From Patellaria atrata CBS 101060 (taxonomy: Eukaryota), in contig MU006095.1 of NCBI GenBank assembly GCA_010093705.1, forward strand, positions 1 through 64,000: 64,000 nt of DNA, written 5' to 3'. Positions 2,641 to 27,099 of this stretch are shown piece by piece; the first letter of the stretch is position 1; the number at the start of each line of letters is the position of its first letter. The position numbers were made by a program, and so were the translations under genes. A model generated the notes under the pieces. That model had not been told where the DNA came from. It saw nothing but the letters and a program-made list of their open reading frames with translations, and searched no databases.

Positions 2641-5600
2641 TTTTTATAATTTAATTTAATAATAATTATTTTATTTATTTTATTTATTATTATAAAATTT
2701 TTTTTTATAAAAAATATTTTATTTTAATATATTTTATATTATTATTTTATTAATAATTTAATTTTTTTAATTTATAATTATAATATTATTATTTTCTTTT
2801 ATAATTTTTATTTTAAAAATATTATCTTATTATTTTTTAATTATAAAGTTTAATATTATTTTAATATTATTATAAATTTTCTATAATTCTTTTTTTTTAA
2901 AAAATATTAAAAATTAAAAATTTTATAATTTATTATTATTATTATTAAATATTAAAGATAAATTTATATAAATTTATAATATTTTTTTTATTTTTTTTTA
3001 TTATTTTTATAATTTTTTCTATTATATTAATTTAAAAATATAATTTAATTTTATATAAAAAAAAGTTTATTTATATAAATAAAATAATATTTTATCTTTA
3101 TTTATTATTTAATTTTATATTAAAAAAATAAAAATAATTATAAAAATTATAATTTTTTATATTTATTAATATTAATTATTTTTATAAATAATTTTAATAT
3201 ATAAATTTATTTATTTATTTATTTATTTTATTTAAAATTTTAAAATAATAAATTTTAAAATAATAAATTTTAAAATAATAAATTTTTTATTTTCTCTTTT
3301 TTTTTATAATTAATATTAATTTTTAATTAATATTAATTTAAATTTTTTTATTTTTAAAATTTTAAAATTCTTTAACTTTAATAATAAAATTTTTTAAATT
3401 TTTATTTATAATTTAATATAAAATATTATTAAATATTATATATTATTAAATAAAATAAAATTTTTTAATAATTATTATTTTTATTATAATATAAAATATT
3501 TTAATAATAATAAAATAATAAAATTAAATAAAATTTATATTTTAAATTTATAAAAAAAATTAATTTTAAAATTTATAATATATTATTATTATATATAATA
3601 TATATTTATAAAAGTTTTAATAAAAATATAATTTAATTTTTATTTAAATTAATTATTAATTTAATTATTAAAAATTTATTATAATTAAAAAATAAATAAT
3701 TATTTAATATATTTTTTATTTTAATTTATTTTTATTTATATTTTAAATATATAAAATAATAAATATAATAAAAAAATTATTAAAGATATAAAATAAAAAA
3801 TAAATAAATAAAATTTAATTTAAAAAAATTATAATATATTTAAATAAATTAAAAATAACTTTTAATTAAATAAAAAATTATTAAAAAATATTTTAAAATA
3901 ATTTTAAAATAATTAATATATAATTTAAATTTATTAAAAAGATAAAAATTAAATATAATATTTATAATTTTAATAAAATTAATTTTTAAATAAATATAAT
4001 TAAATTAATAAAAATTATTATAAATATAAAAAAATATATAAAATTTTATTTTATTTAATTAAATAATTAAAAATAAATTATAATTATTTAAAATATTTAT
4101 ATTATAAAATATATAATTTTATTTTTTATTATTTATAAAATTTATATTTATATTTTTATATAATATAAAAAGATAAATATATTATATAATTAAAAGATTT
4201 TAATCTTTAAAAATATTTAAATAAATAATATATTTAATTTTAAATATTTAAAATATTTTAATATATATAATAAAAGTATATTATTTATTTATTTTTAATA
4301 ATTATAAAAATTATTTTAATTAAAATTTTTAAAATTATTATTTAAAAAATAATATTTTATATATTTTATATATTTTTTTATTAATTATATATATTTTAAT
4401 TATTTAAAATAATTTTTTTTTATTATTAAAATATTAATACTTTTAATATATTTAAAATTTAATATATTAATATATTTTTTATATTAATAAAGAAAAAATT
4501 TTATTAATTTTTAAATATATATTTTTTAATATATTTATAAAGAAATATTTTTATAAAATTTTAAAAATCTTAAATTTTATTTTTATTAATATATATATAA
4601 TATTAAATTATTTTAAAATATATTTATATATTTTATTAAATTATTATTATTATAAATATTATAATATTTAAAAACTTTAAATAATATATTTAAATTATAA
4701 TTATAATTAAAGTTATATAAAATTTTATTATTAAATTATTTATTAAAATTTAATATAAATTTATATAATTTATAAAAAAAATTAAATAAATAATATATAA
4801 AATAATATTTATAAATATTTATATTATTAAATTTAAAATATAATTAATTATAATAATAAAAAGAAAAATATATAAATAAAAATAAATTTAATATAATAAT
4901 ATAATAAAATATAATAAAATATTTATTAAAATATTTATAATATTTTAATAATTAAAGAAAATTTAAAATAATAATAATTATAAAATAATTTAATTAATTA
5001 TATAATATTATAAAAATTATAAAAAAATTAAATATAATATTTAAATATATAAAAAGAATTTAAAAAAAACTTTTAAATTTAATATAAAAATAAATTATAT
5101 AAATTTTTTATTTAATAATAATTAATTTAATATTTTTTATAATAAATTATTTATATTAAAAAATTTTATAATATTTAATAATATTTTATAATAATAAATA
5201 TATATATTATTAAAAATAATAAAAATTATTTTATTTTATTTTTTTAATTATATATAATATTAAATATAATTTTTAATTTTTTTTAAATTATTAAAATTAT
5301 ATAATATAAAATATTATTAAATATTATAGAATTTTTTAATATAAATAATTTATTATAAAAAATATTAAATTAATTATTATTAAAAAAAAATTTATATAAT
5401 TTATATTTATATTAAATTTAAAAATTTCTTTTAAATTTTTTTTATAAATTTAAATATTATATTTAAAATTCTTTATAATTTTTATAATATTATATTATTA
5501 ATTAAATTATTTTATAATTATTATTATTTTAAATTTTTTTTAATTATTTTTATTAATATTTTATTATATTTTATTATATTATTATATTAAATTTATTTTT

Positions 5601-5775
5601 ATTTATATATTTTTTTTAATTATTATTATTAATTATTTTTTAAATTTAATATTATAAATATTTATAAATATATTTTTTTATATTATTAATTTAATTTTTT
5701 TTATAAATTATATAAATTTAAATTTAATTATAATAAATAATTTAATAATATAAAATTTTATAAATTTTAATTATA

Positions 5776-6301
5776 TATTACGGCTATAAGTTATAGGAAC
5801 GTGTAGACGACGAGTGAGGGGAAGAAAGGAACACCACTCGGGAGAACTACGGATGAAACGAGTGATAGAGAATCACGTGACCCAGACGTTGGTCGCTGGT
5901 CGTACTGGTCGCAGAGAACGACCAACGACTAAAACGACTAGACAGTGGTCGCTGGTCGTACTAGTCGCGTAGAACGATCAACGACTAGAACGACTAGAGT
6001 ATAGGCAACCAAATTGACTATAGAGGATAGGAATATTTAAGGACGGTCTTTCCCTCATGTATTTAGATTCTTCGTAGTTATTCTTACCATCAATCTTACC
6101 NNNNNNNNNNNNNNNNNNNNNNNNNNNNNNNNNNNNNNNNNNNNNNNNNNNNNNNNNNNNNNNNNNNNNNNNNNNNNNNNNNNNNNNNNNNNNNNNNNNN
6201 GCCGAACCTACCTTTGTGGTTGACCACGTTAAGTGAGAAGCCAGGCGCGTTTCTAGACTTATCCAGTTCTATCTCGATAAGTATAGACTCCCGTTGTAAC
6301 A
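5776..6301 (+). repeat. 5' LTR (contains a 100-N gap)
   Basis: Matches 12493-13018 except for transitions. Confidence 0.95.
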
Positions 6302-13018: not shown

Positions 13019-14560
13019 TTATAATTATAATTTAAATATATTATTTAAAATCTTTAATTATTATAATATTTATAATAATAAAGATTTTAATAAAATTTAT
13101 AAATATATATTAAAATAATTTATTATTATTTATATATTAATAAAAATAAAATTTAATATTTTAAAAGTTTTATAATAATTTTTCTTTATAAATATATTAA
13201 AAAATATATTTTAAAAAATTAATAAAAAGCTTTTATTAATATAAAAAATATATTAAAAGTATTTATATTTTAATAATAAAAAATAGATTATATTAAATAA
13301 TTAAAATATATATAATAAATAAAAAAATATATAAAATATTAAAATATTATTTTTTAAATAATAATTTTTAAAATTTTAATTAAAATAACTTTTATATTTA
13401 TTAAAAATAAATAATTAATATATTTTTATTATATATATTTATATATATATATATATTAAAATACTTTAATTATTTAAAATTAAATATATTATTTATTTAA
13501 TTATTTTTAAAAATTAAAATTTTTTAATTATAATAATATATTATAATATTAATTCTATATTTTTTATATTAAATATTTAGTTTATTTATAAGAAATCTTT
13601 ATTAAATTAAATATAGAAAAGATCTTTAAATATTAATTAATTAAATAGAAAATAATTAAGTTAAAACTTAATAAAATAAAATTATTATATATAAATATTT
13701 AGTTTATAATATTATTATTTCTTAACTTAATCTTTATATTTAATAGTTAATAATAGAGATAATTAAAATATAATTACTATAATTATATTATATTATTATA
13801 TTAATTATATAATATATTTATCTTTTTATATTATATAAAAATATAAATATAATTTTTATAAATAATAAAAAATAAAATTTTATATTTTATAATATATATA
13901 TTTTAAATAATTATAATTTATTTCTAATTATTTAATTAAATAAAATTAAATTTTATATATTTTTTTATATTTATAATAATTTTTATTAATTTAATTATAT
14001 TTATTTAAAAGTTAGTTTTATCGAAATTATAAATATTATTATTATAAATATTATATTTAATTTTTATTTTTTTAATAAATTTAAATTATATATTAATTAT
14101 TTTAAAATTATTTTTAATTTATTTAAATATATTATTAAATTTTTAAATTAATTTTTATTTATTTATTTATTTATTTTATATATTTAAATTAATATAAATA
14201 TAATAAATATAAAAAAAGTTTTATATTTAAAATATTTAAATATTAAATTAAATTATAAAAGATAAAAATATTTAAAAATATTTTTTTTATATATTTTAAT
14301 TTTTTATAATTATTTTTATTATTAAATTTCTTTATTATATTATTTTTATATAATATATTTTATTTTATTATAAATATTTTTATAATATATATTTTTTTTT
14401 ATTTTATTAAATTTATTTTAATAATTAATTATATTAAATAAAAAATTAAATATATTTTTAAATATATTTTATTTTATTTTAATAAATATAAACTTTAATT
14501 ATAATAATTAAATTAAAAAGTAAAAAAAAATTTTAATTAAATAGTTTATTATTATAAAGT
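13019..14560. repeat. AT-rich RIP relic block, continuing the right arm of the fold-back
   Basis: Same composition as 1-5775; homologous to the reverse complement of 3780-4700. Confidence 0.9.
13529..13800. mobile_element. 272-bp RIP-eroded insertion (solo LTR or MITE)
   Basis: Absent from the left arm of the palindrome; flanked by a TTAAT duplication (13524-13528 and 13801-13805); 12-bp inverted termini tataataatata/tatattattata. Confidence 0.7.
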
Positions 14561-14561
14561 T

Positions 14562-14631
14562 TATATCGATAGAATCTTAACTCTATTAAATAAGGAATGG
14601 TAGAGAGTTACTATCTATAACATTATTATAA
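14562..14631 (+). repeat. ~70-bp direct repeat, left RIP-mutated copy (partner 20781-20850)
   Basis: tatatcgatagaatcttaactctattaaataaggaatggtagagagttactatctataacatt vs tatatcgatagaacctcgactccatcgaataatgaatggtggagagttactacctatgacatc. Confidence 0.85.
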
Positions 14632-15165
14632 GAAGAGAGCGATTACTTTAATCCTCGGCCCGTCTTAAATAGCTGTGTACGTTGACACATCCTCATTACA
14701 TCAAAGAGCAGCCGAACTTCAATCAAAACCAGCAGTTTCGAGCACTCAAGCGGGACCAAACCGAAATGGAACAATCAATCTTCTCGTTCCTCGAGACTCA
14801 CGAGGCTGCTTCTATCAGAGTCCTACGATATCATCGATCGCAACTTAAGACCCCTCTAGCTAGCTTGATTCACGCCCGAAGTGAAGATGCTCCGTCGCGA
14901 ATTGAATATCTATGGAGACTACAACAATAAATACACTCCGGGTAGAATCAGGATGGTATATATCTCTCCGCCCGAGAATCCTGACATAGTAGAACCTTTG
15001 CTATCAAAGTGGGAGCGTAGCAAGTACTCAATAAGAGCCTCGAATATGGAGACTACACTTATAAACTATAAGTACACCTACCGCCTCCCATGTCCTCTGG
15101 ATCATCTCTTGTGCTGTTCACTCATCAGTGGCTATTCTCTCAGTGTAGGTTCGACATGGAGATGA
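14562..15165 (+). pseudogene. Unidentified degenerate coding relic
   Basis: The repeat's frame runs through TAA/TAG codons into ORF 14682-14930; no family recognised. Confidence 0.3.
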
Positions 15166-15904
15166 ACCCCTCGACCTACAGCTCCGTAGTCTTCTATCCT
15201 TTATATTTTTAAGTTAATAACCTGCTGTCTCTAGGGCCAACGTACATTTAATCAACTGTCTACTTATTTACAGCCTCCGTAATCCGTAGAGTCCACCATT
15301 GTATATGCTTTGTGCACAGATTGCAGCTTAGTCGGCCTAGATCGGCAGAACATCTCAGTCTTTCCTTATTCTGTACCGTACACTATCTTCGTTGATAGAT
15401 CCATTCGTAACAAACCGTAGATAAATCTTATTAACTGAACATCTGCTCAGCCGGTATTCCGTCCAATCTCCTCTTTTAAAATGAGTTAAGTGAGAGTGAT
15501 TTAGAGTATGATGAGGGAATAGTATGGAAGCGTGGAAGGTACTCTGAGTGACGTTGGTACTCGCTCTGTACGTGAGAGAGATGAATTAGCTTGTCAATGT
15601 AAAACATTGACCAAAACTGGGTACTGATACTCTATTATGGGCTCTTTTCCAAGTTAGGTTCTCTCCCCGCTGCCAAAGGCTTCCCTTACATTATACAATT
15701 GGAAGAGTGGCTCGATTAGATGGTATTACCACATGAAAAATAGTCACAAATAGGTAGTAAATCAACAGCTAAAATCTCGAAAGTGGAGAGTCGGCAATGC
15801 TATTGTGATTGCACGCTATCATAGCTGGACGCCGTCCACACCGACTATAGAAACCGTACAACCGCTTATGCGTTTTGAGATCCCTCGCATATTAGTGTAA
15901 TAAC

Positions 15905-16690
15905 CTATTCCTCATCCTCATCACCCTCATCATCATCCTTCTTCTCAGCAGCCTTGGCCTTCTTTCTCCTTACACGACCAGGGCGCCCACCACCGAATGG
16001 AGAGGTGAGCGCGAAATCGATGTGCTTCTGGGAATCGAGGCGAACCACAAAGGATGGGACGTTGACGATCTGCTTACCGACGCTGTGATTGACTATTAGC
16101 GAAAGAATTAGAGTAAATGGAGTGGGATATTTACCGGATATGCCTCTGCTTGATCAAGACACGAGCGTGATGGATGGACTTAGCAAGACCGAGCTTGTAA
16201 ACGCAGGTCTGCAGACGGCGCTCCAAGAAATCCTCGATCTTGAGCGCGAGCACGTAATCGAGCTTCATGCGGGATTCGTCGAGCACACCGACACGGACGA
16301 GACGGCGAATGAGGGCGTTCCCTTCGAAAAGGCGCTTGGGGTCTTTCTCATCGAGAGTGAGAAGCTGACTGTGGAATGATTTGTTATCAGCAAGCAATCA
16401 AGACACACGACGCGCTTTTGTATATTAAGAAAAGAGATTGCATACCGTGCAGCACGACGAATCTTGGACAGCGTCAACTGCACACGCCACACCTCTCGCT
16501 TGTTGCGGAGACCATATTCGCCAACGGTTTTCAACTCAGCATCCCTATTGCACGTATTAACACCATCTTCAACGACATGAAGCAGAGATCAAGCTCATGC
16601 TCAGTGGCCGTGAATCGCAACGTACAGACGGGCGGATTCGAATGGACGACGGGGGACCTTGTAGGTCTTGGAATAACTCCTGGGAGCCAT
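15905..16690 (-). CDS. RPS9: 40S ribosomal protein S9 (uS4), 4 exons
   Basis: [22 protein letters not shown] / [17 protein letters not shown] / [19 protein letters not shown] / [27 protein letters not shown] introns. Confidence 0.97.
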
Positions 16691-17008
16691 TGTCGTCGGT
16701 GTTGTCAGGTTATTTGTTGACGACGACGAAGTTCCTCAATATCGGCGTCGAGATGTAGTTCGATTTCTTCGTGATTCTCACTCTTGGGATTGCTAGAGGT
16801 GAGTTGTGCGGAGCCTCGCTTAGCCGTGACGGCAGATCTATTTCCCCGCTTACCGAGCCTCACACACTCGGGTTCTTGGGCGCTAGGAAATTGCATTAGC
16901 GAACGACAATTGCCTCCCGTCCGAAATATTAACAACAGCGTGAGCACGACCGACACCATTTATTGACACTGAAAGTTAATTCTATCGACAGTCAAGACAT
17001 CGGTCACA
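16691..17008. promoter_or_regulatory. Shared bidirectional promoter of RPS9 and RPL21
   Basis: 318-bp gap between divergent ATGs of two ribosomal protein genes. Confidence 0.65.
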
Positions 17009-17598
17009 ATGGGTCACTCCGCTGGTTTAAGAGCTGGTACCCGATACGCCTTCAGCCGGGGCTTTAAGAAGCGCGGTTACATCCCCCTCTCGACATACCT
17101 AAGACAATACAAGTGAGGACTCCACGTTATGCTCCCAGGTATCTAGAAATTGACAGAGTATACAGAGTCGGCGATATCGTAGATGTAGTCGCAAACGGAG
17201 CTGTACAGAAGGGGTCCGTCTATCCCTACCCACCCCCTTTGCAACCGCAAAACTAATAAAATCACAGCATGCCCTACAAAGTCTACCACGGAAAGACGGG
17301 CGTCATTTACAACGTGACCAAGTCCGCCGTCGGCGTCATTCTACAGAAGCAAGTCGGCAACCGCTACATCGAGAAGCGCGTCAACGTTCGCATCGAGCAC
17401 GTCCGCCTATCCCGATCGCGAGAGGAGTTTTTGGTCCGTGTGAAGGATAACGCGGCGAAGAAGAGGAAAGCAAAAGAGGATGGCACGCCCGTGAACTTGA
17501 AGAGGCAACCGGTGGGCCCGCGCGATGCGAGAACAATCAGCCTGGCGGATAACGCTCCGGAGAGCATTGCGCCAGTCGCATATGAGACAACGATTTAA
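17009..17598 (+). CDS. RPL21: 60S ribosomal protein L21 (eL21), 3 exons
   Basis: [17 protein letters not shown]...[39 protein letters not shown]...YETTI. Confidence 0.97.
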
Positions 17599-17950
17599 GT
17601 GGGTGCAGGTTTTCGATGTGGGAAGGACATGACGGAAGGCCGATGTTGAGCAAAATGCATGATGAGGGTCTTTTATTGCTGCATCAAATGCTAGCATGTG
17701 TATTTAGGGTCTCTTAAGAATCAAGACCGTCCATTGTGTTCTGCATTTAACCCAAGTCCTGACATATCTCTGCACAAATTGCACGTTTTCCACAGTGACT
17801 GTTGTAAGGAAAGATTAATCTACATTGGGAGAAAAAGGCGCTGAGGAGTGAATAACACAAGGAATCAGATGACACGCAATCATTAAGAAATGTCAATGTA
17901 TTAAGCTATTTCGAGAGAATTAGTGAAAGCTACTAGAGCATGTATCTTAT

Positions 17951-19049
17951 CTACTGGTTGGCATTATAGCCAAAGAACTCGTGGTCAACAAGACCTCCAC
18001 GTCCAAAAATGCTTCCCGGGAAAACCACGGGAAGGGGCGCAACATAGTTGTCCTCCATTTGCTTCTCGAGGCTCTCGTATGGGATGATGGCGCGATCTTT
18101 GGCTTCATCGGCCATGGTGGGAAGGTAGGGATCGACGCGCTCTAGGATGGGCCAGGAATCCTCTTTCTCCTGGAAGCCAGGCTGATCGTTCCACTCGTCC
18201 ACCATGCATGAAAGAACATTGTCCTGTCCTGCAATACCAAGAATACCTTGACCATATCCGTAGTTGTTCAGCTCGAATTCTGGTTGTTGAATTGCAACTG
18301 TTGCTACCTTGTGTTTCGTTCCACGGCGTTTCTTGTCACCAGCCTTGCGCGGCTGGTACTGATAGTTAGGATAGGTGAGCGCATGGATGCGCTTCGCCTC
18401 AGCAGCCATGTCCTGATAGGCCTTCTTCACGTCCTGCTGCTCATTCTTCCACTGAATTCCAATGACCTTGGCTAGACGCTTATTAGAACAAGTGCGGCGA
18501 AATAAGTGAGCAAACTTACAGATATCATTGTTGTGAATGCCTGGGCATTCCGAAAGGACTTTCGAATGATGGTGCTGACGGTAGAGGATGAATGCATTGG
18601 GTGGACGAGGGATTTTCGAAGCACTCTTTCTGGACTTCTTCGACTCGAGACTCGGTCCCGGAGCAACTGGGGATGGCGCATCAGCTTCAAAGGGGCCGGT
18701 AGTGCTCGAAGAGGTTGTGACTTCCACAGGAGGCTCCGGCGGGAACAGCACGATGGCTCCCTTATGGGACATTTTCTCGGGAACGACACTAATCATAGTT
18801 CTATTCGAATTAGACAAATTCATTACATAACCAAACAAGATGTGAATGCGCTGAGACATACTGATAACGGTCAATGATGACTTTGATGCCATCATTTCCG
18901 AGAGCGTTGGTGGTAGGAGCATCCAGTGACATAATCGCATTATGTCCAAGAGAGTTGAGTGCGATTTGCCAAGCATTCTCGATCGTCTGTTGCTGGGCGT
19001 GGAGAACAGAGCGCTGACTCTGGTTTGTTATAGCTATGATAAAGAACAT
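17951..19049 (-). CDS. MAT1-2-1: Mating-type HMG-box protein MAT1-2-1, 3 exons
   Basis: KIPRPPNAFILYRQHHH...HNNDIS|KVIGIQWKNE...YPNYQYQPRK. A 48-bp intron at 18472-18519 splits the Ser codon, as is typical of MAT1-2-1. First intron 18801-18861; frame intact. Confidence 0.93.
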
Positions 19050-19462
19050 GAAGTCTTAAAGTGAGTAGAATTGAAGAATGTGCGAAGGACGAAGCAGAAG
19101 GAGGTTGAAAGGGAGATGCTGAGAGGGTGCCGAGAAAAAGTGTTGTAGGAAGAAGGGCAGGCTGGGGGAGTTATATTGCAAGCTCGCTAGCCGTTGAATC
19201 CACAAGCGAGCTCACGAGGACATAATTGACTCAGCAGACACTGCACAGAATTGAGGGGGTTAGGGCGTTGCCCTAGCAACGCTCGCGGGGCGGTGTAAGT
19301 CTATTAAAAATGAGTCACAACCAAAATCCGATATGCTACAGCGGGGAATGCCCGAAGCCCACCCGCGCGTGATGGTCAACGTCGTTTGTTTAAGGCTTCA
19401 CACACTTACCAACAACTTCAGCGAGCTCTTCCTAATAGAACACCAATTATCCCCGTACAAAC

Positions 19463-20209
19463 ATGAACATCTATCGACGATTATACCCTAAGCCCATCGA
19501 AGTGCGTCGATCGGAGCGATTTACGAAAGCCACGCGGAAGAGATGGCCTACTCGCCGTACTAGTGGGAATGGTCAAGGTTGTATTCCCAGAGACTGGCTC
19601 AATCGTGCATCGGCGTTTAGTATGGTCCACCAAGTTGAATTTCACACCGATGTACAACTCGAAAAAGATAAAGTTCTTGAGTTATCCAGGTTGCTTCGGA
19701 AGGTTCAAAAGGTCGCAGCCAAGATGGTAGTTATTGCGAGTGAACCGAGTAAGCCCCAAAGAAACGACCAGGAAAATGCTATGGTGCGTTGCGCTATACG
19801 CGAACTGATGCGAAAGTCAGTATCTATATTCCTACGAAACGTAAATGGAGTAATTACGTTAATCCCTCAGTAGGATAACCAGAACCCATATAATGAACTG
19901 TAATATTCTGGCTAGCGATACCAGGCATCGGGCAGCATTACAAAGTATATTCCAAGTTTCGCCACGGCCAAACGATGCTGAGTATCGTTATTTGATGCAA
20001 GTAGGAAACGGGTTAGGATTCGATCAGGACGTTAGAGAGTGGTGTAAGTCCTATACTTCTTGTACTCTACCGTACGATCACAGTGGGCTAACAGTAGAAA
20101 AGTCGAATGTGAAAGGGAACGACTCCGGACTTTGCGAATCATGAAATACTTCTGGACCAAAAAGGCAAAAAGCCTGCACCGGAAGGAGAAAGGGAGAGGT
20201 AGTGGATAG
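19463..20209 (+). CDS. Accessory MAT1-2-linked gene, ~209 aa, 3 exons, with a C-terminal homeodomain-like segment
   Basis: Predicted introns 19816-19873 and 20044-20102 give ...RAALQSIFQVSPRPNDAEYRYLMQVGNGLGFDQDVREW/FECERERLRTLRIMKYFWTKK...; divergent from MAT1-2-1. Confidence 0.65.
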
Positions 20210-20533
20210 TGTTCGGTACGCAATTCAGAGGAGAAAGCGAGGAGATAAGAGAACGGCTCTGCTCTGGAGAAGGCATGTCTTACTCAGACAAAGGTCTGAT
20301 ACCATCGAAGTGCGTATGTGTTAGCGAAACGAAAGCACCGAAGATGGACAAAAATAAAAGGTTCCTTTGTCCTCCAGAACTGCAAACGTAGAACTACCAG
20401 CGTACTACGCAATTGCTCTATATCTAGAATACTAGGATAGTGTGCTAAACCATTCCTAGTATTACCTTGTTTCCGACTACCTATAGGTACCTTAGTGAGG
20501 TCGGTTTGATGCGTGACGTTCATTTTAAGATAT

Positions 20534-20779
20534 TGTTACGAACATGGAAGTAGCCAGTGAGGGCGCGACGGGGGAACGTCGGAAGAGGAACGGAGATATA
20601 AGTCACGTGACTATGGTGATCAGTGTGATCAGTATAGTCAATTAAACTAATCTAATATATTAGTATAGTAGTTATAGCTAATCGAATTAGATTTAACTAG
20701 TGTAACCTAACTACTGTATAAAAAGATTAGATTAAATTAAAGAGAAGAAGAGGTTATAGCTAAACAGTCTACCGTTACA
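20534..20779. mobile_element. Solo LTR, 246 bp, partly RIP-mutated
   Basis: TGTTACG...CGTTACA termini; ATAT duplication at 20530-20533 and 20780-20783; TpA-rich interior. Confidence 0.75.
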
Positions 20780-20780
20780 A

Positions 20781-20850
20781 TATATCGATAGAACCTCGAC
20801 TCCATCGAATAATGAATGGTGGAGAGTTACTACCTATGACATCGTCACAG
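20781..20850 (+). repeat. ~70-bp direct repeat, right less-mutated copy (partner 14562-14631)
   Basis: Ungapped alignment with about 15 mismatches, all but one being C>T or G>A in the left copy. Confidence 0.85.
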
Positions 20851-21061
20851 TTCTATTTTAATTTTGCTTTAATTCTACCGCGGGACGCTCCCTAACTAAA
20901 AGGAGACTTGCCGATACATACCCCCGGCCATGCTCTTGGCCTGCCATCCTTAAGTAACCTCACATCATCCTCACCTGTGAAAGACACATCGACAGCGAGC
21001 AAATAACGTTCTCATACCAATTCATCTATCTTGAAAACTGCGACTACCCGATATACTTTCA

Positions 21062-21721
21062 ATATTGCAGCGTCTTTTCGCGCGACACTTGTCCCCAACC
21101 ACACGCCTCTTGAGCTTACGTTCTACTCGTCGCACCTACGGCAGTGAACTCGCGGATGTGGAAGACAATTCCTTCAATCGAGAAAGAGCAGCGGTTAAAC
21201 ATCATGCAGAGTAGACAAGTGGTAAACCGAAAGACACTCTGAGTTCTTCCATGACTGACTTGTGGGGATCGGAAGATACCTGGCGTAAACTTTCAAACTG
21301 GTAAGCTGTCCGCCAATATATATTTAATCTAACGTAGCCGCTCGACTTGTGCTATTATAGAGCTAATAATTATAGAGCGCCGTCGTTCCTAACATCATAT
21401 TTGCGGGAGCTAATGCGTGGATTCTGTGGAATGAGCACTGGGAGCATTTCGCCCACGGTTCGTCTCTAGAGGAAAAGACCGAATACTCCTATCCCAACAT
21501 AAGGTTTAAGAACTACTTCTGGGAAGACGGTGATAAGGTTAGTCCCAAGCAGTCCATCATAACATACATAATTCCATATTAGGTATTCCTTCACAGCTTT
21601 ACGATTGCGGTTCACTTGACAACTGTCACATATACATATCCATATATATATATATACTAATGTGAGTCTATTGCAGACACTTTCCTGGAACGATAAATTC
21701 AATTATCACAGGAAAATGTAG
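21062..21721 (+). pseudogene. COX13: Cytochrome c oxidase subunit VIa pseudogene, 4 exons
   Basis: Spliced: (ATA)LQRLFARH...DNSFNRERAAVKHHAE*TS/DTWRKLSN/AVVPNIIFAGANAWILWNEHWEHF...EYSYPNIRFKNYFWEDGDK/TLSWNDKFNYHRKM. ATA occupies the start position; in-frame TAG at 21212-21214. Confidence 0.88.
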
Positions 21722-22159
21722 TAACGGGAAACATTAGTGCACGACCATGTGTAGCCAGGTCGCTATATTCTAGTTGGAGGACGGATTCCCTAAGCAATCA
21801 AGGGACAAGTTTACAAAGCTGATCATCTTGCCTCTATGTGCTTTCGAACATTGATGACGTATTGTGAGATGTGCCGCGATGCAGGTGATGCTTTTCTATG
21901 AGTCAGAGTTTGATGTCACCTGGCCAGTTGCTGCGGCGGTTGCCCGGGTGACGCAAAATAATAATGGCCCAGCCTCCCCATTATCGGTGATTGCATGTGC
22001 TCAAATTAAGCGAGCAGCACCGCAGCCGACCTTTTTAAATTCTTTGTTCCTCTGCCTCCTCTTCCTTTTTACAACCTCTTTGTTCCAACCTTTGAGACCG
22101 CTTTCGCACACGCATTTGGAACAATCCTCATTGAACTTCGACAACTCCTTTCGCTCATC

Positions 22160-23189
22160 ATGTCAGAAGAATCCGTTGCAGCTCAAATGGCAGCCTTCAT
22201 GAACTCTTGCAATGAAACGCAGCTCAAGGCAATCCGAGGGTGGCTCGACAAGAATCCCATCGCTGTGGAGGGTCCGGCCACCACAATCTTGGATACTGGT
22301 CGCCCTGCGACCCACCCGCGTCGTAGACGCATTACTCAAGATGGTTCGGCCATGAGGCCCTTGAATAGTTGGATGGCCTTTCGAGGTAAGCTACCATGTA
22401 AGCATAGCAGTCATGTGAAGCACAGTACTAATGTTTACAGGCTATGTGAACAGCGGCCTTTGTGGCGGCTGGAAACAAATGGACGCTTCGGCATTCATAC
22501 GTTGTTTGTGGCGTTCGGACCCTACGAAGAACAAATGGGCTATCATCGCGAAGGCCTATTCGGAAATCCGCGACACGGTTGGCAGAGTTAACATAGATTT
22601 GAAAGAGTTCCTGGACCTCGTGTGTCCTGAACTCGGCCTTGTCCCTGCGGATGCGTATCTAGAGGTCTTCGGTTGGGTGACCCAGGAGAATGACGGTGTG
22701 CGAACCGTCCATCGCGTAGCAAACTTCGATGCGACCAGCCTCCATCCCGACATCTTGTACACCAACAAGACGTCCACCGATCTCGTCCATTTTTGCGAGC
22801 AAAAGGGATTTTTTTTCAAACCATCTGTTGCACCAACCGCCAATGCTTCGGGTGTCAGCCTCGCCATGGTAGCCCGTCCGGCTACGGAGAACAACGTTGA
22901 CGCGTCAGTCACAGCCGGTGGAGACTCAAAGGTTGTCTATGACGATGACAATTTCCCGGAGAAAGGACCTCTGCATCCCCGAGCTGCAGTCGAAGGACAG
23001 GCAGTCCTCCTCGTCATCGGTGGGTCAAAATATCCGCACAATGACCAGTTCCAACCCGACGATGAGAACACCCTTCTACAGTTCGATGACGCTCTCGGTG
23101 CCGACTTCAACCACTTCGATATTTGCAACTTCACTATGGGAAGTTGTTTAGATTTCTCTATGTATGATCCGGAGTTCAACACCTACTAG
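22160..23189 (+). CDS. MAT1-1-1: Mating-type alpha-box protein MAT1-1-1, 2 exons
   Basis: RPLNSWMAFR/GYV...WKQMDASAFIRCLWRSDPTKNKWAIIAKAYSEIRD; intron 22386-22440 at the usual alpha-box position; frame intact. Confidence 0.93.
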
Positions 23190-24379
23190 GTATGTAGCCC
23201 ATTCCCGTTACAATGATAACAGGCTAATATAGTAATTCAGATGGATGGGTGGATGGGTGGATGGATAAGCTTGCTGGTGGTTGCTGGTTGTTTTGACGGT
23301 CTCGCCAAAAGAAATTCTTCAGGTCACGGGTAGTTTTCTTGTGGCTATGGAAAGTTATTGGGGTGCTTCCTTGGGGTTTAGTTAGCTTAAAATAGTCATG
23401 AATGAAATCCTAAAAGTCCGACTTGGATAACTTGTGCTCCTCAACCGCCAGGATGTCAAGGTTCTACGTAGTGAAGAGTAATGCACCTAACTAGAGAGAC
23501 TAAACACAGCAGGAAGTTATAGATCATATTCTACGGTGCTACTTCCTGTTGTTATGGTGGGGAAGATAGGATGTGTCTATCCGCTCATGCCATTGGAGAG
23601 TGGTGCAAGTTCTAATTGACTTATAGTCTTTGACGGGAAACGAGGTCGCTGATATAGGAAATTCGGGCGCGGATAAGAACAGGTTTACACTTTGATCATC
23701 ATCGGAAATTCCTAACTAGAAAAGCATGCCACCTTCGATCGAACACTTGATGTAGAGAACCTTTAGGATGTCCGAGGTAAAAGAACAGAAGTATGGGAGA
23801 GAAAGGGTCAAGTTTCCAGGTAATTCCATACCTAAATTATGTGTGTAGGATGTCTTAAAAGCCCTAATCAATTGAAATGCCAATAGTCCTCGACCATGCA
23901 ACTGGTTGTTTTTAATATTCTATCGAACGTCAACAGGATCGTGAAAAATCTATGGTCTGATAGCACCGTGGACCCATCTATGCACTCGAATGCAATGGAT
24001 GTATTTACTACTTTGCACACATATAGAATAACATGGTAAGATGGTGTGCTCAAACAGTGGTATTTTGCATAATCGATCCCATCCACTCAAGCAATTCCAA
24101 GGGAACGGAGCCTTGACGTTCAATTAAGATGTGCGCTATGCTGACATTGGATGGAACGGTCAGGGCGGTTAGCTCTTCCAAAAACTAAGCATTCACTCCT
24201 ACCTCACATATCTTCTCCATATCACATCAAACAGACAGGCTTCCGCATCCTAGAAATCAGTTTCATTTCATAGCTCTAGCGCGCATTCCGCATACCGCAG
24301 CTGCTCATAGGCGTGCTTAGGTTGTGTGGGAACGTCCGCAAATGGCGACTATTCTCCGATCATTCAACGTCGACCCACC

Positions 24380-27099
24380 ATGGTGACCCTCACCAGCTTC
24401 CTCACTATCTACATCTTCGGTGGCTTGACGTTCCTTCCGCTAGTTTGTGTTGCTCTCCTATACCATGCATATCTAACCTGCCGTATTCGAGACTCAGCCG
24501 CCTCTAATGCTAAGCACAAGAAGCCACTTCCAAGTGAGCTTGATAAGCTAAAATCCCTGACAGACTGGGATATTGGGCCCATCGGCCTCTATCAGGATGA
24601 TCTCCATTCGAGGCGTCATTCTGATGTCGCCGCTGGCTACTTCGCAGTGTGCAGGGAGTTTATCGCGGGCGGTGTGAATGGCAAACCGCCAGAGCGGACC
24701 TCGTTCACTGGGTCAGTTGCCCCGACGGCTAGCTCCAGCATCTATCAGAGCATGTATAGGAGTTTCTTTGATAGGAACAAGACCCAGGTTTCCGTTATTG
24801 ATACTGGAGCAGTCAGATCATCGAGAAAAGCCTCCAATCTATTTTACATTGTTTTAAGGTACTTCTCGGTGTGGTCTTGTCGTAGTTACTAAAGGTATAC
24901 TAACGCAAGAATAGGCATGGTCATTTGATGCTATATGATGATTCGGAGCAAGTAGAGGTGCGACACGTTATATCGTTAGCTCTATATGAGGTTGATGTAT
25001 ATGCTGGTGGTGAACCAATCCCTGAAGGCGAACTTTGGATCAAGCGCAATTGTATTCGCCTAACACGGAATGCTACATCGGATGGTATGGCTACGGATTT
25101 GAGATCCTTATTCTTTTTTTCAGACAATAGCTCTGAGAAAGAGGATTTTTACCACGCTCTTCTGAGCAGCAAAGAACACAAACCCGGCGATATCGGCGAT
25201 TCTCCATTACCACTCCAGTTTGAGCACAGAGACATCGTACAATTGATACAGCAACTACATATATCTGGCGAAAGCTTTCAAGCTCGCTGGTTGAATGGGC
25301 TGATTGGGAGAATCTTTCTCGCCGTTTACAAGACTTCTCAGGTTGAGAATTACATTCGAATGAAGATCACGAAGAAGATCGCTCGAGTACCAAAGCCGGC
25401 GTTTCTTAGCGATGTTAGTATTCAGAAGATAGATATGGGACATTCACCACCATACATTACCAACCCGAAACTGAAAGAGCTAGCCGTGGACGGAGAATTG
25501 ATACTGGAAGCAGATGTCAAGTATACCGGCGAGTTCTCATTAGAAATTGCTGCTGTTGCACGCATCGAATTAGGATCCCGGTTCAAACCTCGCGAGGTGA
25601 GCTTGGTTTTAGCGCTCATTTTACGAAAACTTGAAGGTCATGTTCTTCTTAGAATTAAACCTCCTCCGAGTAATCGACTCTGGGTCTCTTTCGAAACAAG
25701 CCCAAAAATGGAATTGGCCATTGAACCCATCGTAAGCTCTCGTCAACTAACGTATGGATTTATTCTTCGCGCAATTGAAAGTCGGATTAGAGAGGTCATT
25801 CAGGAGACTCTCGTGCTTCCTAATTGGGATGACGTACCTTTCCTTGATACCTCACTTCAGGATCATCGAGGAGGTATATGGAAAGGGGAAGATGGTGTCC
25901 ACACTGTCTCTGGAAAATCAGAAGCTTCCGTAGAAGACAATGCTAACAAAACTAAGCATCAATCCGCTTGGGATAAAGAAACCCCGTCTTTAGAGGAGAA
26001 TCAGGTCATAGCTACTGGTGTGGATTCTACACAAACTCTCGTTAAGCAGCGCAAATCTCGGTATTCTGGGTTATTTGACGACAGTGAGAAAGTCCTAGGT
26101 GGAACGACTCAGATTGAAGACAAGGTTCAGAGTCGCAAACCAAAAGTTATGAGATCGAATTCATTCACTAGAGGTGCTCAACCTATAGTGAACACAGATC
26201 TGGCTATCTCTCAGAGCACCCAAACTGGAAACCAGGGGCTGAATGCAGCAGCCTCGATGAAGGATATCTCCAGTCGATCTCATCCCGCATCGCCAATTCG
26301 CCCTAGTACACACCCAGATGAGATAAGAGTGATGGATGGGCCTAAGACTAAGAGTGTGTCTTCTAGCTCTTCTACCCTATCGATTGCTGAGAGTCATCCG
26401 GATGATAGACGAGTGGAATCACGTGGCTTCTCTGGTGATGCAAGGTCTCAGTTGGTTGATAATCGAGTCCCAGGTGAGATCTTCGCTACACAAGCAGCCG
26501 ACATGTCCCAGAGCATTATTAACCCCTCATCGGTGGGGTTAACTGCACCGAGTGAGAAGCGCATCGCATTGAACCAATCTATAAACTCAGCTACCACTAT
26601 GGCGAAAAAGTGGTGGGGTACCCGGCATAATCCAGTCCCTATAGCCCGCGCGGCTTCAATCAAACTAAACAAATCTCATAGCCTAGAAGGGAAGTCGGAG
26701 ATACCGGTCAATACTATTGACGATTCATCACCATTATTAGGATCCCCTTTGCGACCAATTGGACGTGGTCAGCCATTACCGCCAATTGGAACTCCCTTAC
26801 CACTACCAAAGTCAGAGAGGACAACATGGACGCCTACTTCTTTTATGAATCCTATGAAACGCAAACCTTTGCCGGTTCAGAACCAATGCTATCCATCACT
26901 TCAAGGGGTAGGTGTTGATCAACAAGGCTCGGATCATACGGTCAATTTACACAATCCGTCCACCGTATTTCTTTCTGCTGGGCAAGATTGTGCCGTTGAC
27001 CCGCAAGATGATGCAAAGCTTCTCATAATCGCGGCGCCGACAGATTCTTTGCCCTCGAGTCCGGTAAAGGAACACCAATACCAAAGCGTCTCTGAATGA
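24380..27099 (+). CDS. PH-like plus SMP (DUF2404) domain membrane contact-site protein, Nvj2-like
   Basis: N-terminal TM (IYIFGGLTFLPL), AAGYFAVCREF, FYIVLR/HGHLMLYDD, RWLNGLIGRIF, KPPPSNRLW, TLVLPNWDD; one intron at ~24859-24914. Confidence 0.88.

Follow-up and report, generated by a model that had tools for sequence, protein, structure and literature searches.

Does the mating-type (MAT) region of a filamentous ascomycete hold a homeodomain gene beside MAT1-2-1? The question is raised by a 64,000-nt stretch of DNA, referred to as the window, whose matching proteins come from Patellaria atrata CBS 101060 (Dothideomycetes, Patellariales). A gene at 19463–20209, annotated at NCBI as a 195-aa hypothetical protein (KAF2838978.1, hereafter P0001), lies next to the HMG-box gene MAT1-2-1. 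The gene is real and more than a chance succession of open reading frames (ORFs). It is likely a three-exon, diverged member of a homeodomain family that several ascomycete MAT loci contain head-to-head with MAT1-2-1. Its role, if it has any, is most likely accessory, and it probably lacks canonical DNA reading. An earlier note on the same DNA had proposed a relic or diverged homeodomain, and this proposal is supported by the sequence pattern of the relatives, their linkage to MAT1-2-1, and the PF00046 matches of two of them. None of the three outcomes that would have refuted the note, by its own account, turned up.

Relatives of the gene beside MAT1-2-1

Because the accessory gene was not findable directly, the search for its relatives was routed via its neighbour. 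The MAT1-2-1 relatives comprise 98 proteins, several of which are named MAT1-2-1 by their sources. An alignment of 42 MAT1-2-1 relatives led to 80 metagenome loci encoding MAT1-2-1-like proteins, and phmmer with P0001 found two matches only among the 6681 six-frame ORFs of these loci. Both are in locus L003 on the minus strand (L003:331–735, E 0.0026; L003:63–293, E 0.003). They are adjacent to each other, collinear with P0001 exons 1 and 2, and on the opposite strand to MAT1-2-1. Profile searches added L021 (duplicate L022), L018, L007 (duplicate L061), and L019 (duplicate L020), with weaker matches in L008 and L017. All family members are located upstream of MAT1-2-1 on the opposite strand, i.e., head-to-head. 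More than 1500 bp of upstream DNA is present in 23 of the 80 loci, and eight of these 23 have an ORF of the family at E <0.01, which amounts to five distinct sequences; six of the eight belonged to, or duplicated, the profile training set. As a reciprocal control, a profile made from five environmental sequences, with P. atrata left out, was run on the 1201 ORFs of the window and matched a single one (19863–20141, E 5.9e-5). Two of the loci, L007 and L022, have the canonical MAT order of SLA2, homeodomain gene, MAT1-2-1, APN2, and APC5. The check on relatives suggested in the earlier note thus came out in its favour, as the homologues in L003, L007, L018, L019, and L021 carry the pattern and are linked to MAT1-2-1 in divergent orientation.

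We then read the DNA of five genes (P. atrata, L003, L007, L018, and L021) for introns. The first intron is of phase 2 and splits the fifth codon after a C-A-[I/V]-R motif in all five genes, and the second is of phase 1 in homeodomain codon 49, again in all five. At the second junction, a W codon (Y in L003) is followed by a T directly before the GT donor, and this T joins TC or TT after the AG acceptor, so that F49 is assembled across the splice in every gene. The conserved C-A-I-R and P-N-x-A-E motifs are both intact in P. atrata. The third exons of L007 (8434–8574), L018 (1640–1780), and L021 (1611–1751), all on the minus strand, encode 48 residues each and have a similar K-P-x-x-x-H right before the stop codon. 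A similar K-S-L-H is found nine residues before the stop in P. atrata, and the model of a paralogue (P0002, see below) ends with L-V-H.

The recognition helix of a homeodomain has the signature W-F-x-N-x-R, composed of W48, F49, Asn51, and Arg53. The Pfam scans of the relatives were limited to exon 2, in which the final third of the domain is missing, and PF00046 matched two of four relatives, namely L021 (E 2.2e-4; 21.4 bits, with a cut-off of 22.9; profile positions 5–47) and L003 (E 0.014). Across the junction, L003 reads Y-F-A-N-R-R, which provides Y, F, Asn51, R52, and Arg53. Five environmental members align gapless from helix 1 to W48 with the Pfam-verified homeodomain of another metagenome locus (L059, PF00046 E 1.2e-10), with which the family has N27, A29, and E30 in common. 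The alignment with this typical homeodomain has no gap through the helix 1–2 loop either, i.e., the spacing is non-TALE. A search of the family profile, itself ending at W48, against PDB returned ZHX2 as the best match (E 0.2) and ZHX3 (E 1.2), in gapless stretches ending on W48. Judged by sequence, the environmental family is a homeodomain family. The homeodomain pattern described in the earlier note accordingly holds in the relatives, through PF00046 and N51/R52/R53 of L003, but P0001 itself has no Pfam match.

The P. atrata copy deviates from this picture within the domain. A canonical homeodomain has 28 residues from F20 to W48. The P. atrata protein has 30, due to a 3-residue insertion and a 1-residue deletion (net +2) compared with the others. 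Of the six sequences aligned, it alone requires indels between helix 2 and helix 3, turn included. Its recognition helix has W48, F49, and Arg53, together with Cys51 and a Glu at each of positions 50, 52, and 54. The earlier note had placed a Glu at position 51, which is corrected to Cys by the W48 F49 numbering. The canonical Asn51 is present in L007 only with its CAG acceptor. A basic N-terminal arm is a homeodomain feature, and our reading of the alignment finds none in any of the five aligned genes. The recognition helices form a graded series from the near-canonical L003 to the eroded P. atrata, and the P. atrata copy is, as aligned, the most eroded of the family. Because of the indels, Cys51, the acidic start of helix 3, and the missing basic arm, canonical autonomous DNA reading has probably been lost.

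Gene model, protein, and competing explanations

The gene is assembled from three ORF pieces on the plus strand (19439–19873, 19863–20144, and 20048–20209), whose exons and introns are listed in the table. Two forms of intron 1 compete, and both preserve the reading frame. The NCBI model has a 100-nt intron (19816–19915) and thus gives 195 aa, whereas the short form of 58 nt gives 209 aa. From the intron-1 junction codon to helix 1, there are 24 residues in four relatives, 21 with the 58-nt form, and 7 with the NCBI form. The family spacing of 24 residues is nearer to 21 than to 7, and the 58-nt intron is therefore likelier; the family profile alignment also extends into the stretch disputed between the two forms. 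Hence, the NCBI intron 1 of the accessory gene is probably too long, and the 58-nt intron with a 209-aa product, as proposed in the earlier note, is favoured over the 100-nt model. The second intron that it had proposed, with a W/F junction and an AAG acceptor, is the same in the NCBI model of P0001, and the relatives form F49 likewise. The codon-usage log-odds of exon 1 are +16.8 in frame, compared with −14.5 and −33.8 in the other two frames, and exon 2 is also coding-like with a score of +6.3.

P0001 was also examined alone. A phmmer search against PDB matched the Oct4 POU homeodomain in the homeodomain register, with an E value of 0.0026 for the whole protein and of 0.027–0.038 for residues 105–195; the next PDB match is the ZHX2 homeodomain (E 0.4). 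The full-length AlphaFold2 model has a predicted local distance difference test (pLDDT) score of 40 and is unusable. The model of residues 105–195 has a pLDDT of 70.4 and shows helices at fragment positions 16–28, 35–47, and 50–87, which is the order expected of a homeodomain. Foldseek with this model returned homeodomains in 24 of 44 rows, all with an E value of 2.8 or worse, including Oct4, engrailed, CDX2, an HD-ZIP, and MATa1 (1yrn_A, E 6.8). A structure search independent of Foldseek had no homeodomain among its top 50 matches, and the structure rows of ESM Atlas are TPR-like with template modelling (TM) scores of 0.62 or below. By itself, P0001 is weakly homeodomain-like, and the homeodomain reading taken alone is suggestive.

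The same genome has a paralogue on another contig (P0002, KAF2837074.1), which is 70% identical to P0001 over residues 54–145 (92 residues). The N-terminus of P0002 differs, and its model stops inside helix 2. A search of P0002 against PDB matched HmvA with an E value of 0.36, which we took as chance. Exon 1 of P0001 matched itself and P0002 only in the protein libraries, and the family alignment matched nothing there except the exon-1 ORF calls P0102–P0104. A metagenome scan with the P0001 and P0002 alignment gave 218 pattern matches, none of which was confirmed. The phmmer search of 1.84 billion representatives added P0003 alone, a metagenome protein of 1117 aa. It is a C2H2 zinc-finger repeat protein, and its match is irrelevant to the homeodomain part. 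The inter-finger repeats of P0003 match P0001 residues 28–71 five times at ca. 38% identity.

Several results weigh against a homeodomain-family gene at this locus. The whole P0001, its residues 105–195, and its exon 2 have no PF00046 match at E up to 10, with the note that HMMER filters discard most matches above an E value of ca. 0.1. Exon 2 alone matches no homeodomain in PDB, and the Oct4 match requires exon 3, the codon-usage score of which is an ambiguous 0.0, though the best among the three frames. ESM Atlas, searched with the whole protein and residues 105–195, returned nothing homeodomain-like, with best scores of 0.79–0.80. Searches of 1.84 billion and of 5.8 billion proteins yielded no full-length relative save P0002, whose gene has no MAT linkage and whose model is devoid of helix 3. 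Within the family, exon 2 of L007 and of L018 has no Pfam match, and helix 3 varies, since L018 has neither Asn51 nor Arg53 and L021 has Asn50 and Arg53. In 15 of the 23 loci with a sufficiently long upstream sequence, the region before MAT1-2-1 is without an ORF of the family. Both splices are predicted, and runs X1 and X2, both from the same sample, consist of genomic contigs in which neither intron is spliced out. Lastly, any function given to the P. atrata protein is purely inferred.

These points bear differently on the explanations that compete with a diverged homeodomain-family gene. If the gene were a lineage-specific orphan with a chance resemblance and no homeodomain kinship, the missing Pfam match of P0001, the weak fold matches, and large protein libraries holding no relatives apart from the paralogue would be expected. 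Such an orphan is close to refuted by the two collinear L003 matches beside MAT1-2-1, the reciprocal profile match in the window, the intron positions and phases held in common, and the Pfam homeodomain matches in the relatives. Another explanation retains the gene but splices it differently, at a CAG or TAG acceptor or with intron 2 retained, so that the protein ends at W48 or in a 16-residue unrelated tail and helix 3 is incomplete. The CAG acceptor (20094, 51-nt intron) leads to that tail, and the TAG acceptor (20097), of which the earlier note had warned, to a stop after W; our reading of the DNA confirms both. Three AGs follow the CTAAC branch site at a distance of up to 11 nt, and AAG is the weakest of them; the junction is moreover predicted from DNA, and the PDB homeodomain match is lost without exon 3. 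However, the branch adenosine is only 3 nt away from CAG and 6 nt from TAG, and AG sites so near to it are usually skipped. Among the three frames, that of AAG also stays open longest and scores best for codon usage, and the AAG-acceptor reading is supported because four relatives form F49 across the same phase-1 junction. We consider other splicing quite improbable.

The gene may instead be a decaying relic, i.e., a homeodomain-family descendant without function, whose frame is open by chance or because the decay is recent. This would fit a relaxation of constraint on an idiomorph-specific regulator where the MAT locus is fused and the species self-fertile, and MAT1-1-1 and MAT1-2-1 are 3 kb apart. 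The same holds for the sole helix-turn-helix indels among the six aligned sequences, Cys51 with the acidic start of helix 3, a third exon that falls short of the 48 residues found in L007, L018, and L021, and the exon 3 codon score of zero. On the other side, the three exons are open and their splice signals usable, exons 1 and 2 are coding-like in codon usage, the paralogue retains its identity over 92 residues, and the C-A-I-R and P-N-x-A-E motifs have survived. We regard a relic as rather unlikely. For the diverged homeodomain-family gene, which we prefer, the following course may be envisaged. The P. atrata homeodomain would have eroded through the net gain of two residues between helix 2 and helix 3, Cys51, and Glu50/52/54. 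The protein, if active, would be an accessory mating-type regulator that works via protein contacts or with a partner, and the 413-bp promoter common to both genes could drive its expression together with that of MAT1-2-1.

The MAT region and its surroundings

The segment of ca. 5.3 kb at 17951–23189 contains MAT1-2-1, the homeodomain-family gene, COX13, and MAT1-1-1. As MAT1-1-1 and MAT1-2-1 are both within ca. 5 kb, the MAT arrangement is fused and of homothallic type. Neither SLA2 nor APN2 was found in the window, as judged by its ORFs of at least 110 aa. The P. atrata MAT region is thus rearranged and of self-fertile type, compared with the SLA2...APN2 order in L007 and L022.

Table. Features of the P. 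atrata window and homeodomain genes of the second arrangement in metagenome loci
Feature	Position	Strand	Basis or remark
Ribosomal protein L21e gene	within 16–27 kb		Pfam
Ribosomal protein S9 gene	within 16–27 kb		ORF reading
MAT1-2-1 (HMG box)	17951–19049	−	Pfam HMG_box, E 2.9e-17
Divergent intergenic region, 413 bp between both start codons	19050–19462		sequence reading
Exon 1 of the putative homeodomain-family gene	19463–19815	+	P0001; ends 4 codons past C-A-I-R, fifth codon split (phase 2)
Intron 1, short form, 58 nt, TAG acceptor	19816–19873	+	sequence reading; predicted
Exon 2: homeodomain-like predicted helices 1 and 2 and start of helix 3	19874–20043	+	last full codon W48, followed by base 1 of codon 49
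Intron 2, 59 nt, phase 1 in codon 49	20044–20102	+	NCBI model; GTAAGT donor, CTAAC branch site, AAG acceptor
Exon 3: rest of helix 3 (F49 E50 C51 E52 R53 ...) and basic tail	20103–20209	+	stop codon 20207–20209
Main exon of COX13 (cytochrome c oxidase subunit VIa), located between MAT1-2-1 and MAT1-1-1	21376–21582	+	Pfam COX6A, E 4.9e-20
MAT1-1-1 (alpha box)	22160–23189	+	Pfam MATalpha_HMGbox, E 2.2e-26
PH-domain gene	within 16–27 kb
Canonical homeodomain gene	L059:13137–13799	+	PF00046, E 1.2e-10
Homeodomain gene	L060:11004–11669	+	L059-type
Homeodomain gene	L049:3531–4145	+	L059-type
Homeodomain gene	L041:2237–2854	+	L059-type
Homeodomain gene	L069:3899–4018	+	L059-type

The NCBI model of MAT1-2-1 (P0004, 257 aa) begins at ca. 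18772 and leaves out an upstream exon (18864–19049, minus strand). This exon is kept in L003, with 34% identity over 50 residues (BLASTP E 5e-7). Because of this conservation, the true MAT1-2-1 start is suggested to be at 19049, and the annotated protein P0004 is probably truncated at its N-terminus by the absence of its first exon. The 413-bp divergent spacer, which the earlier note had described, stands if MAT1-2-1 starts at 19049 within the conserved exon, but would grow to ca. 690 bp with the P0004 start. In L003, the spacer between the divergent genes is ca. 389 bp, comparable to the 413 bp in P. atrata.

The first 4 kb of the window are ca. 98.5% A+T (GC 0.014–0.015) and consist of simple A/T-rich sequence, and positions 4001–6000 have a GC of 0.065. 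An AT-rich stretch of 10 kb follows (GC 0.25–0.42), the long ORFs of which have no Pfam match, and the MAT region is located ca. 2 kb beyond it. The AT-rich block beside MAT could be centromere-like or repeat-mutated. The contigs of the genomic runs break at 18162–18210, 20742–20787, and 22524–22574, where the depth is ca. 1.5–2 times that of the neighbouring DNA, and two of the three stretches are inside MAT1-2-1 and MAT1-1-1. These breaks suggest that short stretches of identical sequence recur in other parts of the genome; positions 15000–26000 of the window showed no repeat.

Comparison with known mating-type homeodomain genes

A second arrangement of homeodomain genes was found in the metagenome loci, represented by L059. 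The L059-type genes are on the same strand as a MAT1-2-1-type HMG gene, 1–3 kb downstream of it. Their intron is 45–49 nt long, of phase 0, and exactly between W48 and F49, and the exon following it begins with F-S-N-R-R in three of four loci (L059, L049, L041, and L069 were read). The L059 locus has a second HMG-box gene at 14264–15211, and its flanks are unlike the usual MAT neighbours. The L059-type genes resemble the family in the gapless alignment from helix 1 to W48, in N27/A29/E30, in the W48/F49 intron, and in the MAT1-2-1-like linkage. They differ from it in passing Pfam, in their position on the same strand downstream, and in the intron phase, which is 0 instead of 1.

The auxiliary gene of the MAT1-2 idiomorph in Lecanoromycetes, MAT1-2-14, provides a published comparison. 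ZHX and Homez are related. PF11569 (Homez) had no match at E up to 10 in six exon-2 rows of our set, unlike the pfam11569 published for MAT1-2-14. Pizarro et al. (2019; PMC6414310) report pfam11569 for this gene in some Lecanoromycete species, describe it as fast-evolving with variable intron numbers, and draw a "homeodomain containing-protein" beside MAT1-2-1; the text of their Fig. S1 gives its position as between MAT1-2-1 and SLA2. The name MAT1-2-14 was given by Ament-Velasquez et al. (2021; PMC10512270), who state that there is no homologue outside Lecanoromycetes; their supplement makes no mention of a homeodomain. MAT1-2-14 and the P. atrata gene are alike in being MAT1-2 accessory genes adjoining MAT1-2-1, and the L007 and L022 relatives sit at the position given in that Fig. 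S1 text. By published description, they differ in that MAT1-2-1 and MAT1-2-14 are tail-to-tail in Lepraria (PMC11515122), whereas the genes here are head-to-head. Furthermore, MAT1-2-14 is said to be confined to Lecanoromycetes (PMC10512270), yet P. atrata is a Dothideomycete.

Accessory genes at other MAT loci can likewise be compared by their published descriptions. To our knowledge, no domain is assigned to MAT1-2-4 of Aspergillus fumigatus. This gene, like the P. atrata one, is an accessory gene of the MAT1-2 idiomorph, and it is required for mating according to PMC8454179, citing Yu et al. (2017). In Verruconis gallopava, PV09_01801 is reported to have a homeodomain motif at the MAT locus and was proposed to be a mating regulator (Teixeira et al., 2017; PMC5358931). 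It is, like the P. atrata gene, a homeodomain gene in the MAT region of a Dothideomycete, and it differs in that no alpha-box or HMG gene is reported at the V. gallopava locus (PMC5358931). Since PMC6414310 and PMC5358931 report homeodomain proteins at MAT loci, this kind of gene is already published, and the premise of the earlier note that MAT1-2 accessory genes generally have no domain is incomplete.

The prior record thus consists of homeodomain hits noted at single MAT loci or in lichens. New are a Dothideomycete member outside Lecanoromycetes, the class said to be the only holder; an exon–intron layout that is now defined, in which both introns are conserved and the second interrupts homeodomain codon 49; the fixed head-to-head arrangement with MAT1-2-1; and the graded series of recognition helices from a near-canonical L003 to the eroded P. 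atrata. Two NCBI annotations are to be amended: the first exon is probably missing from the MAT1-2-1 model, and the model of the accessory gene most likely removes too much as intron 1. Existing genomes allow direct tests of where MAT1-2 accessory genes came from and of whether a1 was truly lost.

The comparison with budding yeast bears on this last question. MATa1 of Saccharomyces cerevisiae, the partner of alpha2, is a small non-TALE homeodomain protein whose gene adjoins the HMG gene of its own mating type, and one of its introns lies exactly between W48 and F49 in phase 0. The P. atrata family is similar to MATa1 in having a short homeodomain gene beside an HMG gene, non-TALE spacing, and an intron in helix 3. 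It differs in that the family intron is one base later (phase 1) and in that P. atrata is without Asn51. The sole a1 match of P0001 is the Foldseek row 1yrn_A mentioned above. We know of no alpha2-like partner in Pezizomycotina. In S. cerevisiae, a retained intron 2 changes a1 in the C-terminal part of helix 3 without affecting helices 1 and 2, and a1 by itself does not bind sequence-specifically (both PMC3287188). In textbook accounts, the MAT loci of Pezizomycotina have alpha-box and HMG genes but no longer the homeodomain genes known from yeasts and basidiomycetes (Lee et al., 2010, as cited in PMC5358931). In the literature collection searched, no paper was found that connects MAT1-2 homeodomain genes with a1 through their layout or the place of an intron.

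Descent from a1 is plausible in view of the non-TALE spacing, the linkage to an a2 homologue, the W48/F49 intron, and the L059-type loci. It is weakened by the one-base difference in phase, by the best PDB matches being Oct4 and ZHX2/ZHX3, and by the lack of a known alpha2-like partner. We therefore put forward only tentatively, as the less probable outcome, that the family is the "lost" a1 counterpart of Pezizomycotina. It would then have been linked to MAT1-2-1 since before the split of filamentous and budding ascomycetes, with the W48/F49 intron kept exactly in the L059-type genes (phase 0) or shifted by one base in the present family (phase 1). Its evolution would have been so rapid that members in different classes received separate names or were overlooked (MAT1-2-14 in lichens, and possibly further MAT1-2 accessory genes), the P. 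atrata gene representing a late erosion in a self-fertile species.

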